A stretch of 64,000 bases of DNA from assembly GCA_018995085.1 (NCBI GenBank), contig GCA_018995085.1_3936.1; one strand, 5' to 3'. The notes under the pieces are model-generated. The model worked only from the letters and a program-made list of their open reading frames with translations. It made no database searches and was not told where the DNA came from. Below are positions 10,539-12,504 of the stretch, one piece after another. Position 1 is the first letter of the stretch; each line of letters opens with the position of its first letter. A program made the position numbers and the translations under genes. The stretch is from a phage.

Positions 10539-11003
10539 TTACTTTGGGTATACACTGTCAAGATAAATGTCAGCTTCCATTCTACGTCTGTTTTTCAGTC
10601 CGTTTGAAGTGACCTTCTTACCTTTGACTGTAACCTTGTTCCACCACTGCATAGCTTCTGCACAACCTCCCTTATTACCAGCGTTGTGGCGCTTGATAAA
10701 TGTTGAGTCCTGCATAGCTGTGATACCGATGTTGTATGTTTCACTTACAAGTGCATCGAACTCATTCTGAGTAGTTGGAACCTTGATAGCTTTGTTCACT
10801 GCTGCAACAAACTTCTCAACATCCGCGAGAAGATACTGTTCAGCTTGTTCAGCAGTAATTTTCATACCCATCTTAACAGGTTTTCCGTCAATACGAATTG
10901 TACCATACCCGATTGTTGGGATTCCGGCAGAGTCTTCGTAAGCCTCTAACTCCAGACCTTCGAAGAACTTAATAGCGTCTAAACCTTTTCTTGAGAGTTG
11001 CAT
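10539..11003 (-). CDS. endolysin, T4-type lysozyme (GH24)
   Basis: N-terminal EGLELEAYEDSAGIPTIGYGT with Glu/Asp/Thr catalytic spacing typical of T4 lysozyme family; 154 aa. Confidence 0.8.
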   Translation of the reverse strand: MQLSRKGLDAIKFFEGLELEAYEDSAGIPTIGYGTIRIDGKPVKMGMKITAEQAEQYLLADVEKFVAAVNKAIKVPTTQNEFDALVSETYNIGITAMQDSTFIKRHNAGNKGGCAEAMQWWNKVTVKGKKVTSNGLKNRRRMEADIYLDSVYPK

Positions 11004-12136
11004 TACGCCTCCCCTGCTGGGTTAACTGTAACTGTTGCTGCATTGGATGTTACAGAGCCACCTGCACCAGTAACTACACAGGTGTAGCTTCCTGCATCAG
11101 CAGCGGTTGCACCTTCTTTGGTGTAAGTTGCAGTAGTTGCATCGAGGATGTCTTCCTCACCTTTCTTCCATTGGTAACCTGTCGCACCTGTTGCCACAAC
11201 ATTCAGCGTTAAGGTCTCACCTTCAGTGATTTCTTGATTGGTTGGCTGTTGAGTGATAACTGGTAAAGCTTTCACAGTAACGGTTGCAGGGCTAGAAGTG
11301 ACGGAACCACCTGCACCTGTTACAACGCAAGTGTATGAACCTGCATCTGCTGGCAGAGCACCAGACTTACTATAGGTTGCATCTGTAGCCGTAGGAATGT
11401 CAGAGCCATCTTTCTTCCACTGATAACCTGTTGCACCTGTTGCAGTCACTTCCAAGTTGATGTTTCCACCCTCATTGATGGTCTGGCTAGAAGGTTGTTG
11501 TGTAATCACAGGCAGTGCATTGACAGTAACTGTTGCCGCATCTGAGGTAACACTTGTCCCTGCCTCTCCAGATACAACACAAGTGTATGAACCAGCATCA
11601 GAAGGCACTACAGACTGTTTTGTGTAGGTTGCAGATGTGGCGCTAGTGATATCCTCACCACCCTTTTTCCATTGATATCCAGTGGCATTAGTTGCAATAA
11701 CACTTAGGGTAAGTGTACCACCTTCATTTACTGTTTGATTGGTTGGTTGCTGAGTGATTGATGGTGGCTTGATAGCATCCTTCAACTTAGCATTCAACAT
11801 TGAGAATGGTTTAACTCTTGCCAGCCATTCACAATAAACTGTATCAACATCTTTACCATTGATAATTGCATATTGTAAGTCCATGAAGAAGTCAGAAGTT
11901 CTCATTTGAGCACCAACGCTGTAAAGCAACTCATCACTAAATGGAACTTTGTAGTCTGGTTTGTAGTCAAACTTCTCAACTTCTGCAATATCAGCTTCAG
12001 GCCAATACGAACTATAGGTGAGTGGTAAAATAGCCTCTTGATATGTTCTAAAATCATATCTCTTACCAGCCTTTACATTTGCAACGAAGCCCTTCACAAA
12101 CTCTTTGAAGTCTGGGTAAGTCTTTGCTTTAATCAT
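11003..12136 (-). CDS. protein with N-terminal domain paralogous to upstream gene plus three C-terminal Ig-like repeats
   Basis: three about 85-aa repeats (ITQQP..GATGYQWKK..AGSYTCVV..TVTV); N-terminal 125 aa aligns with 12133..12504. Confidence 0.7.
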   Translation of the reverse strand: MIKAKTYPDFKEFVKGFVANVKAGKRYDFRTYQEAILPLTYSSYWPEADIAEVEKFDYKPDYKVPFSDELLYSVGAQMRTSDFFMDLQYAIINGKDVDTVYCEWLARVKPFSMLNAKLKDAIKPPSITQQPTNQTVNEGGTLTLSVIATNATGYQWKKGGEDITSATSATYTKQSVVPSDAGSYTCVVSGEAGTSVTSDAATVTVNALPVITQQPSSQTINEGGNINLEVTATGATGYQWKKDGSDIPTATDATYSKSGALPADAGSYTCVVTGAGGSVTSSPATVTVKALPVITQQPTNQEITEGETLTLNVVATGATGYQWKKGEEDILDATTATYTKEGATAADAGSYTCVVTGAGGSVTSNAATVTVNPAGEA

Positions 12137-12504
12137 TTCTTTTTAGCCTCTAAATGTGCGTTTAGTCTAAAATAACCTTTGTGATGTGGAGATACATCAC
12201 CAACAACAATACCTTTAACCTTATAACCTTTACCAATTACATACTGAATATCCATAAGGAATCTTCCAAGACCAACAATATGGAACATTGGATATAATAG
12301 ATTCTCAGAGTCTGGAATATTGATTTCGGGTTTGTAGGTGTGTTGTTCGATTGTTGGTGTAATATCTTCTTCAGGCCATTTGCTGAGTCTCCATGTCAAA
12401 GGTGTTGGGATAACATCATTAAGGTTGTACCTTTCACCATTTTGCACGGAATTGATATAGGATTGTAGGAAGCAATAAAAGTCTTTTGCACTCTTAGCTT
12501 TCAT
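12133..12504 (-). CDS. hypothetical protein, paralog of N-terminal domain of the Ig-repeat protein
   Basis: shared motifs (RY, WPE.DI, YKP, LLY, FMD.QY.I..GK) with 11003..12136; ATGA start/stop overlap. Confidence 0.6.
   Translation of the reverse strand: MKAKSAKDFYCFLQSYINSVQNGERYNLNDVIPTPLTWRLSKWPEEDITPTIEQHTYKPEINIPDSENLLYPMFHIVGLGRFLMDIQYVIGKGYKVKGIVVGDVSPHHKGYFRLNAHLEAKKK

Follow-up and report, generated by a model that had tools for sequence, protein, structure and literature searches.

Two cryo-EM studies describe the decoration proteins closest to the gene pair analyzed here: Hex-Dec of Bas63 (Escherichia phage JohannRWettstein, PDB 9NCF chain S; Sci Adv 2025, PMC12609058), which belongs to the same protein family and comes from the same genus as the present phage, and gp20 of Shigella phage Sf14 (genus Mooglevirus, PDB 9C2D chain S; Commun Biol 2025, PMC11821841), an ortholog. 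Each is a monomer at the centers of edge hexamers, with a capsid-binding domain (CapBD) at the N terminus and flexible Ig-like domains (PMC12609058, PMC11821841), the number of which varies from 1 to 4 for Hex-Dec within the genus (PMC12609058). R79 and R107 of the Sf14 decoration protein form salt bridges with D221 of the MCP, its phage's major capsid protein, and displacement of D221 at the true 3-fold hexamers keeps the decoration protein off them (PMC11821841). T4 Hoc resembles Hex-Dec as a dispensable hexamer-center monomer carrying a string of Ig-like domains on a small capsid-binding domain; this domain is C-terminal in Hoc, whereas in Hex-Dec it is N-terminal and has a topologically distinct fold (PMC12609058).

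The DNA analyzed is a stretch of 64,000 nucleotides (the window), 95–97.5% identical to Felixounavirus genomes, and its source is classed by this identity as a Felix O1-like myophage of the genus Felixounavirus. The gene at 11003..12136 (minus strand, 377 aa) very probably encodes Hex-Dec, a Hoc-like capsid decoration protein, and the gene at 12133..12504 (minus strand, 123 aa) an old tandem duplicate of its CapBD only, lacking the Ig arm. The long protein is already explained by the solved structures of its orthologs; the Ig-less upstream paralog finds no mention in the Bas63 or Sf14 structure papers (PMC12609058, PMC11821841) or in the Sf14 supplements.

The gene pair and its locus

Both ORFs lie on the minus strand and overlap by 4 nt, the stop codon of the short gene and the start codon of Hex-Dec sharing ATGA (12133..12136), which suggests translational coupling. 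A GAGG Shine-Dalgarno sequence (SD) for Hex-Dec (12147..12150, minus strand) falls inside the conserved L-E-A codons of the short gene's 3' end, and is kept in 6/6 lineages compared as well as in the REP9/Z31 pseudogene remnant. The endolysin gene (10539..11003, minus strand; GH24 phage lysozyme, PF00959 at 4.1e-41, phrog_7) is the last of the three-gene block, and its ATG overlaps the Hex-Dec stop codon (junction sequence TAATG). The block is closed by an intrinsic terminator detected by terminator scan (10512..10529, minus strand; 7-bp stem with 5 GC pairs, then TTTTTTATTTT), an equivalent of which is also annotated in wV8. On the upstream side, an AAGGA ribosome-binding site (12511..12515, minus strand) stands 6 nt before the short-gene ATG (12504), preceded by a GC-stem hairpin, GGGGC-TGAT-GCCCC followed by TTT (12521..12543, minus strand). 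This hairpin is a rho-independent terminator in the wV8 annotation and in Felix O1 Table 2, is kept upstream of the short gene in Sf14, SUSP2, UAB_Phi87 and the L006 contig, and was missed by the consensus terminator scan because its T-run is short. No sigma-70 promoter was found between the hairpin and the short gene by sequence inspection and scanning, and there is no room for one there.

As the original prediction had it, the pair sits beside the lysozyme and outside the structural block: the terminase gene starts far off at 21802, and the gene of the MCP, the binding partner of Hex-Dec (27514..28620, plus strand; HK97-fold, Phage_cap_E, PF03864 at 1.9e-78), at 27514, with a tRNA cluster between the morphogenesis genes and the CapBD/lysozyme block. 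The synteny comparison that had been proposed alongside bears this placement out as a general one, since the lysin-adjacent CapBD locus is kept across Ounavirinae and is, on comparison of gene order, ancestral for the whole subfamily. Gene order in Bas63 is the same as in the window (short paralog, Hex-Dec, endolysin). Sf14 likewise carries a short paralog (FDI99_gp021) immediately upstream, and differs in that its endolysin is 8 nt away, whereas that of the window overlaps Hex-Dec. Erwinia Kolesnikvirus and one further lineage have only one CapBD gene, placed immediately upstream of the lysin. The Kolesnikvirus protein (phages phiEa21-4, phiEa104, Fifi318), encoded at the same locus between a phrog_4034-like gene and the lysin, joins a CapBD 37% identical to that of the window to a single Big_2 display domain, in contrast to the I-set Ig domains of the window, and has no short paralog.

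Hex-Dec, its capsid contacts and its Ig arm

In a phmmer search of the PDB, the 377-aa protein matched Bas63 Hex-Dec (9ncf_S) almost identically over residues 1–372, at an E-value of 1.8e-302 for the full sequence, which is boosted by a second match to the extra Ig domain of Bas63, and Sf14 gp20 (9c2d_S) at 1.8e-169, aligned from residue 1. The protein also matched phrog_3995 at 5.5e-208, and its orthologs are Felix O1 ORF36, wV8 gp41, Bas63 bas63_0124 and Sf14 gp20. Its CapBD (aa 1–123; 11768..12136, minus strand), which lines up almost identically with the modeled parts of 9ncf_S and 9c2d_S, is 98% identical to that of Bas63 and 88% identical to that of Sf14. R79 and R107 are both present in it, as is D221 in the window MCP (motif KIRDAYL), in agreement with Sf14, where all three are conserved; even the Erwinia-phage ortholog has R79 unchanged.

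The remainder consists of three tandem I-set/Ig_3 Ig-like domains (aa 124–206, 207–290 and 291–373; 11018..11767, minus strand), with Ig_3 (4.4e-33), Ig_2 and I-set (2.1e-25) each matching three stretches in Pfam. At 83–84 aa each, these correspond to the three repeats of about 85 aa that had been read from the sequence. They are 67–71% identical to one another and make up an acidic arm (pI 4.3, net charge −11). The ~250-nt period that an Ig domain would give was not among the arrays detected by Tandem Repeats Finder, which marks the repeats as old and not as recent DNA-level tandem copies. Bas63 has Ig domains of the same type, four (460 aa) against three in the window (377 aa), and Sf14 has three as in the window, with more diverged sequences (about 64% identity for Ig1).

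Hoc-like head decoration profiles of PHROG matched the Ig region of the long protein (phrog_2973 at 2.8e-41), covering residues 121–371 only and never residues 1–120; by these comparisons the relation of Hex-Dec to T4 Hoc is one of analogy, not family membership. In addition, an Ig-less tandem paralog is present beside Hex-Dec, whereas none came up for Hoc in the sources covered. Similarly, T5 pb10 (PDB 5LXK; 8ZVI) matches the long protein through its Ig domain (E 9e-11, query residues 215–291 only), while its capsid-binding domain has no detectable similarity to either window protein.

The original prediction could assign no function to the domain shared by the two proteins, and this part of it falls: homology and structure matches equate the domain with a characterized capsid-decoration domain, the CapBD of Hex-Dec and Sf14 gp20, solved by cryo-EM in 2025. 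Its suggestion that the Ig-like domains hint at virion decoration is borne out by the same capsid structures, and no observation in this analysis contradicts the Hex-Dec assignment. Virion proteomics, which it had named as a check on both proteins, separates them in published Felix O1 data, where the Ig protein (ORF36) was detected in purified virions by mass spectrometry (44% coverage) and the short paralog (ORF37) is absent.

The position of the window protein at pentamer-proximal hexamer centers is carried over by homology from the Bas63 and Sf14 structures. In a T=9 head, every pentamer-proximal hexamer, 60 in all, would have its center plugged by one Hex-Dec monomer, with R79 and R107 pairing with D221 of three MCP subunits, and the three acidic Ig-like domains would reach out from the head as a flexible arm. 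If T4 Hoc is a guide, this arm may let the head stick weakly to mucus, to surfaces or to other particles, and would not be needed for plaque formation.

Origin and conservation of the short paralog

The two proteins are 36% identical over 101 aa by BLASTP (E 2e-17), within a homologous stretch of about 120 aa, and each matches the PHROG profile of the other (phrog_4463 to the long protein at 2.8e-17, phrog_3995 to the short protein at 2.5e-15), which upholds the earlier view of tandem paralogs related through the N-terminal domain. The sequence blocks on which that view was built (G.RY, WPE.DI, YKP, LLY and [FL]MD.QY) all fall inside the pair alignment, with the correction that the 'GK' of the last block is offset by one residue between the copies. 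An alignment of 14 members of both families retains 31 invariant columns, and the tree resolves the short and the long proteins as two monophyletic clades that share one internal topology. The short gene is, on this phylogeny, the product of one old tandem duplication of the CapBD part alone. A profile scan of the 64-kb window in six frames found no further CapBD copies, only these two.

Orthologs of the short protein are Felix O1 ORF37 (NP_944851.1), wV8 gp42, bas63_0125, Sf14 FDI99_gp021 and SUSP1 agp126, that of Bas63 being only 85% identical to the window protein, and the family is phrog_4463, labeled 'unknown function'. Its 123 aa end with the CapBD, with no Ig-like domain and no Pfam match; for the CapBD itself, Pfam returned nothing, and the one NCBIfam match was far below threshold and fell within the long protein's Ig region. 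Among PDB entries, phmmer matched the short protein only to the CapBD of 9ncf_S (3.4e-12) and 9c2d_S (1.3e-11), and its AF2 model (pLDDT 73.7) matched only the same two chains in Foldseek (probability 1.0, TM 0.66). Matches of the model in BFVD were to Ounavirinae proteins only, and the search for fold relatives of the CapBD outside the family gave only a weak, non-significant likeness to PulM/PilO C-terminal domains (Foldseek, probability 0.2–0.4). An exhaustive HMMER search with a joint profile produced 12 matches at E≤1e-3 among 1.84 billion representative proteins, and those with genomic context examined were all in Ounavirinae-type loci.

The short ORF is intact across Felixounavirus, Mooglevirus and Suspvirus, in about 233 of 253 phage records, and a distant 87-kb metagenomic contig encodes a 45% identical short protein in the same gene order. 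With a dN/dS of 0.10–0.18, as low as that of the neighboring endolysin, the gene is, by its substitution pattern, under purifying selection and functional; this value and the count of intact records rule out a pseudogene in the window phage. About 19 of the 253 records (about 7.5%) have no intact copy, and the REP9/Z31 clade carries it as a pseudogene of which the 3' end with the SD is kept, indicating that the gene is dispensable and that its contribution may be small or conditional.

Where Hex-Dec has R79, all short-family members have G; at R107, those from enterobacterial phages have H or Q, and one distant homolog has an R displaced by a gap. The 'VKPF' of Hex-Dec is replaced by 'HKGY'. 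Fixed differences between the families number 44, against 43 shared consensus residues, and cluster in the C-terminal half, and the most conserved segment of the short protein corresponds to the capsid-contact half of Hex-Dec. Judged by these substitutions, the short protein has diverged in function from Hex-Dec.

Candidate roles of the short paralog

Transcription of Felix O1 ORF36 and ORF37 is late, with a maximum at 60 min, as for portal, sheath and fiber genes. The virion proteins detected in Felix O1 include some of 9.7–13 kDa but not ORF37, at inclusion limits (coverage of at least 25%, top 17 proteins) that could leave out a low-copy component; the additional virion proteins reported for VpaE1 do not include the short protein either. 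The capsid maps of Bas63 and Sf14 show no density on other hexamers, though both phages encode the short paralog (PMC12609058, PMC11821841), with the reservation that icosahedral averaging would smear a monomer on a true 3-fold hexamer. Knockdown of agp126, the SUSP1 short paralog, had no fitness effect; the same screen gave 'Not Fit' for the endolysin as well, which makes false negatives likely. By the virion lists and capsid maps, the short protein does not appear to be a stable part of the virion. With low confidence, it is taken to be a non-structural or transiently bound accessory, with the CapBD fold kept and a binding face that is remodeled and conserved. In the fuller version of this reading, which has a low probability, the gene would encode a previously unremarked class of protein, a non-virion, Ig-less CapBD paralog that would act on hexamer centers or on Hex-Dec during head assembly and would be gone from the mature virion. 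Such a protein could be a transient placeholder, a factor determining where and when Hex-Dec is loaded, or a decoy drawing off some host factor able to recognize the CapBD.

A rather unlikely alternative is that the short paralog is itself a second hexamer-center decoration protein, sitting where Hex-Dec leaves hexamers empty, either on the 20 true 3-fold ones or on a few special ones. The predicted retention of the CapBD fold, the stop/start overlap with Hex-Dec, the late peak shared by the Felix O1 orthologs and the conservation of the segment equivalent to the capsid-contact half would suit such a role, and altered anchors could fit the 3-fold hexamers from which displaced D221 bars Hex-Dec; the empty hexamers in both cryo-EM studies and the missing entries in the Felix O1 and VpaE1 virion lists speak against it. 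It is distinctly unlikely that the gene is kept mainly as an upstream ORF bringing ribosomes and the SD to Hex-Dec, or that it is a slowly decaying duplicate. The SD within its last codons, the ATGA overlap, the survival of just this 3' end where the gene is destroyed in the REP9/Z31 clade, the silent SUSP1 knockdown and the records from which the gene is missing are what such a leader would leave behind, but the endolysin-like dN/dS, the intact ORF in three named genera and in the 45%-identity lineage, and the 44 family-specific fixed residues argue for selection on the protein, since a mere leader would not conserve amino acids to this extent.

Most database records would make the Ig protein, and the short paralog by propagation, tail proteins, which is very improbable. 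The labels 'tail protein' or 'putative tail protein' are carried by Felix O1, wV8, Sf14, PHROGs (phrog_3995) and UniRef entries, and the Ig region does resemble its counterparts in major tail proteins (phrog_158, phrog_853), but this likeness is limited to promiscuous Ig domains (residues 96–295 in PHROG), the tail annotation is called wrong by the Bas63 authors (PMC12609058), and the direct modeling of the protein into capsid density in two phages (PDB 9NCF, 9C2D) rules it out. Barely conceivable is a fusion of the two ORFs into a double-CapBD protein by programmed −1 ribosomal frameshifting at the AAAAAG run that directly precedes the overlap. The short gene ends GCT AAA AAG AAA TGA with Hex-Dec in the −1 frame, so that slippage on AAA-AAG would carry translation on into Hex-Dec; the fusion is rejected because neither the run (GAAAAG in wV8, AAGAAA in Sf14) nor the frame relationship (8-nt overlap in SUSP2, TAATG overlap in the L006 contig) is conserved, and Felix O1 ORF36 stands in the virion table at its unfused mass of 31.6 kDa.

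For the Ig protein, the outcome is mostly a correction of the databases: what most records call a 'tail protein' is the solved head decoration Hex-Dec, and its odd-looking location beside the endolysin is the ancestral, conserved location in Ounavirinae. The short paralog is a natural copy of the CapBD without the display arm, long kept by selection and yet not appearing in virions. If it modulates Hex-Dec loading, it would touch on the way in which decoration proteins select certain hexamers, and would matter for the use of Hex-Dec as a scaffold for antigen or ligand display, as has been done with T4 Hoc and T5 pb10.

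Gene pair and its capsid-decoration member

Two adjacent minus-strand ORFs, a short gene (12133..12504, 123 aa) and a long gene (11003..12136, 377 aa), overlap at ATGA, and the stop of the long gene is overlapped by the ATG (TAATG) of the lysozyme (endolysin) gene immediately downstream (10539..11003, PF00959). The two proteins are 36% identical across 101 aa (BLASTP, E 2e-17), with PHROG profiles matching reciprocally (2.8e-17 and 2.5e-15), and the long protein carries three I-set/Ig_3 domains of 83–84 aa each and 67–71% mutual identity, confirming the original prediction of tandem paralogs beside the lysozyme, one extended by three Ig-like repeats. 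No third copy of the shared domain was found within the window by a six-frame profile scan. Many Felixounavirus genomes, LMP34, wV8 and Tribble among them, share 95–97.5% DNA identity with the region; the gene trio is annotated as gp42, gp41 and gp40 in wV8, and as ORF37, ORF36 and ORF35 in Felix O1, with the long protein labeled 'putative tail protein' in databases almost everywhere.

In a PDB sequence search, the long protein matched 9ncf_S, from the icosahedral capsid of Bas63 (phage JohannRWettstein), at E 1.8e-302, with residues 1–372 nearly identical, and 9c2d_S, from the capsid of Shigella phage Sf14, at E 1.8e-169. This protein, Hex-Dec in Bas63 and gp20 in Sf14, is a monomer at the center of the pentamer-proximal hexamers of the T=9 head, was not seen on the true 3-fold-axis hexamers, and has flexible Ig-like domains without resolved map density (PMC12609058, PMC11821841). 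In Sf14, three capsid-protein subunits contribute D221 to salt bridges with R79 and R107 of gp20 (PMC11821841); both arginines are present in the long protein of the window, and D221 in its major capsid protein (MCP). Given the matches to solved capsid chains and the presence of these anchor residues, the shared domain is the characterized capsid-binding domain (CapBD) of a Hoc-like decoration protein. The claim that it had no assignable function was therefore not borne out, such a structural match being the refuting outcome named with it.

The Bas63 authors regard the 'tail protein' label as a mis-annotation, place the Hex-Dec gene >10 kb outside the structural module, and report 1 to 4 Ig domains across the genus (PMC12609058). 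Virion association of the Ig protein, for which proteomics had been proposed as a check, is documented in published Felix O1 data, in which ORF36 was detected in purified virions at 44% coverage. By homology to the solved structures, Hex-Dec would plug the centers of edge hexamers through its CapBD, displaying the acidic three-Ig arm (pI 4.3), and by analogy with T4 Hoc, we infer a non-essential role for this arm in weak adhesion or modulation of aggregation.

Locus, distribution and evolutionary history

The pair adjoins the lysozyme gene and lies far from the terminase, portal and MCP genes (starts at 21802, 23426 and 27514), which are on the far side of a tRNA cluster (24 Rfam hits; 15796..21369, plus strand), so the non-structural location was read correctly, but it is no anomaly: the endolysin-adjacent position is ancestral, because distant relatives keep one or more CapBD genes at the equivalent locus. 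Synteny was upheld in wV8 and Felix O1, and on a distant 87-kb Ounavirinae-like metagenomic contig (L006) a 195-aa gene is followed by a short paralog (45% identical), a two-Ig Hex-Dec and lysozyme, in the same order as in the window. Erwinia Kolesnikviruses differ in having one CapBD-Big_2 gene at the locus, and metagenomic contigs L011..L013 have a single 153-aa CapBD protein (L011:6001..6462) immediately upstream of lysozyme, with a K/S/E-rich low-complexity C-terminal tail replacing the Ig domain. With this tail, the display module of the family is counted as exchanged on three or more occasions (I-set, Big_2, disordered tail).

The short gene was recovered by tblastn, with 74–99% identity, from Felixounavirus, Mooglevirus and Suspvirus phages; ~233 of the 253 records matched contain it, and ~19 lack an intact copy. 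When a profile was run exhaustively against 1.84 billion representative proteins, only 12 hits came back, and the family is therefore very small. In a neighbor-joining tree, the short and long clades are each monophyletic with identical internal branching, which indicates a single duplication within the subfamily's enterobacterial branch.

Several neighboring genes were also recorded. A 123-aa DUF5681 protein (13762..14133, plus strand) is transcribed divergently from the block, and its SUSP1 ortholog, agp130, is among only 19 'Fit' genes in a CRISPRi-ART screen. A DUF2828 and DUF7788 protein, labeled 'RNA-binding protein' in RefSeq (14215..15630, plus strand), is directly upstream of the tRNA cluster, in which 3 of the 24 hits, weak at 30–33 bits, may represent something other than ordinary tRNAs. 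On L006, a Gad1-family gene (PF25705, anti-Gabija; 11510..12369) lies ~5 kb downstream of the CapBD pair.

Fold and binding face of the short paralog

The short protein matched only 9ncf_S and 9c2d_S in the PDB, in their CapBD parts only (E 3e-12 and 1e-11). An AlphaFold2 model, predicted from an alignment of 14 sequences covering both families (mean pLDDT 73.7), matched the same two chains alone in a Foldseek search of the PDB (probability 1.0, TM 0.66), all other matches having E >0.6, and all five predicted viral structures matching with probability ≥0.99 were Ounavirinae proteins, the Erwinia phage CapBD-Big_2 protein among them. By these matches, the short protein is a stand-alone CapBD without the display arm.

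Pairwise dN/dS of the short gene was 0.10–0.18 for pairs with unsaturated dS, similar to the endolysin (0.06–0.11), and between genera the short protein changes at two to three times the rate of the Hex-Dec CapBD (74–77% versus 88–92% identity). The two families have 43 consensus residues in common and 44 positions fixed differently, the latter concentrated in the C-terminal half, which bears R79 and R107 in Hex-Dec. R79 is invariant in Hex-Dec orthologs as distant as 37% identity, those of Erwinia phages included, versus G in every short paralog; at the position of R107 the enterobacterial short paralogs carry H or Q, and 'HKGY' stands in place of 'VKPF'. Judged from these sequences, the pattern is that of a protein under continued selection with a putatively altered binding face. 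Between the window and UAB_Phi87, dS was 0.67 for the short gene (12133..12504), 0.32 for the adjacent CapBD (11768..12136) and 0.15 for the endolysin (10539..11003), and short-gene matches within Felixounavirus form two clusters, at ~95–99% and ~84–91% identity to the window; mosaic exchange or old alleles are suggested for the short gene alone.

Expression, dispensability and role

A conserved GC hairpin precedes the tightly packed block of short, Hex-Dec and endolysin genes, and a clear intrinsic terminator follows it. By RT-PCR in Felix O1, ORF36 and ORF37 peak at 60 min, alongside portal, sheath, baseplate and fiber genes, and ORF35 and ORF38 at 25 min. In the minus-strand intergenic stretch 12505..12551, ~25 nt separate the terminator-like hairpin from the short-gene ribosome-binding site, and no sigma-70-like promoter was found there; read-through, antitermination or an unrecognized late promoter are candidates for late transcription entry, given the contrast between ORF38 and ORF37/ORF36.

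The short gene is dispensable, as evidenced by the records without an intact copy, by pseudogenes in REP9 and Z31 (ATA start, frameshifts, ~220 nt internal deletion) that retain the 3' end with the Hex-Dec Shine-Dalgarno, and by the SUSP1 screen, in which agp126 (short) and agp125 (Hex-Dec) were both 'Not Fit'; the endolysin received the same score, which means that the screen yields some false negatives. In Shigella phage Z31, the Hex-Dec gene (L004 2498..3070) is also broken, into a 134-aa CapBD-only ORF and a 55-aa fragment, and with both genes disrupted in one genome its head may carry only a bald CapBD. CapBD-only truncated Hex-Dec variants of 121–149 aa occur in metagenomes (P0058, P0081, P0082).

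A 'bald' decoration protein occupying the 3-fold hexamers is disfavored by capsid maps and virion proteomics: the short gene occurs in both Bas63 and Sf14, whose maps have no density at the remaining hexamers (PMC12609058, PMC11821841), ORF37 is absent from the Felix O1 virion list, which does include proteins of 9.7–13 kDa, and the further proteins reported from VpaE1 virions do not include its ortholog. Purifying selection speaks against a leader ORF or a decaying duplicate, which is also disfavored. Fusion of the short and Hex-Dec genes by frameshifting was rejected, since neither the slippery-looking AAAAAG nor the frame relationship is conserved. With low confidence, the short paralog is taken as a late-expressed accessory that would not be stably retained in virions, and that may target capsids or the loading of Hex-Dec through its remodeled CapBD face.

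The word 'paralog' appears in neither structure paper, 'duplication' is absent from the Bas63 paper (PMC12609058, PMC11821841), the Sf14 number of the short gene, gp21, does not occur in the Sf14 paper (PMC11821841), and no further relevant literature on Hex-Dec was found by name. Publications from 2025 explain the main finding, which is ordinary for the Felix O1-like phage group; the sole new element, modest and testable, is the recognition of the upstream hypothetical gene as a conserved CapBD paralog lacking both the Ig domains and the anchor arginines.
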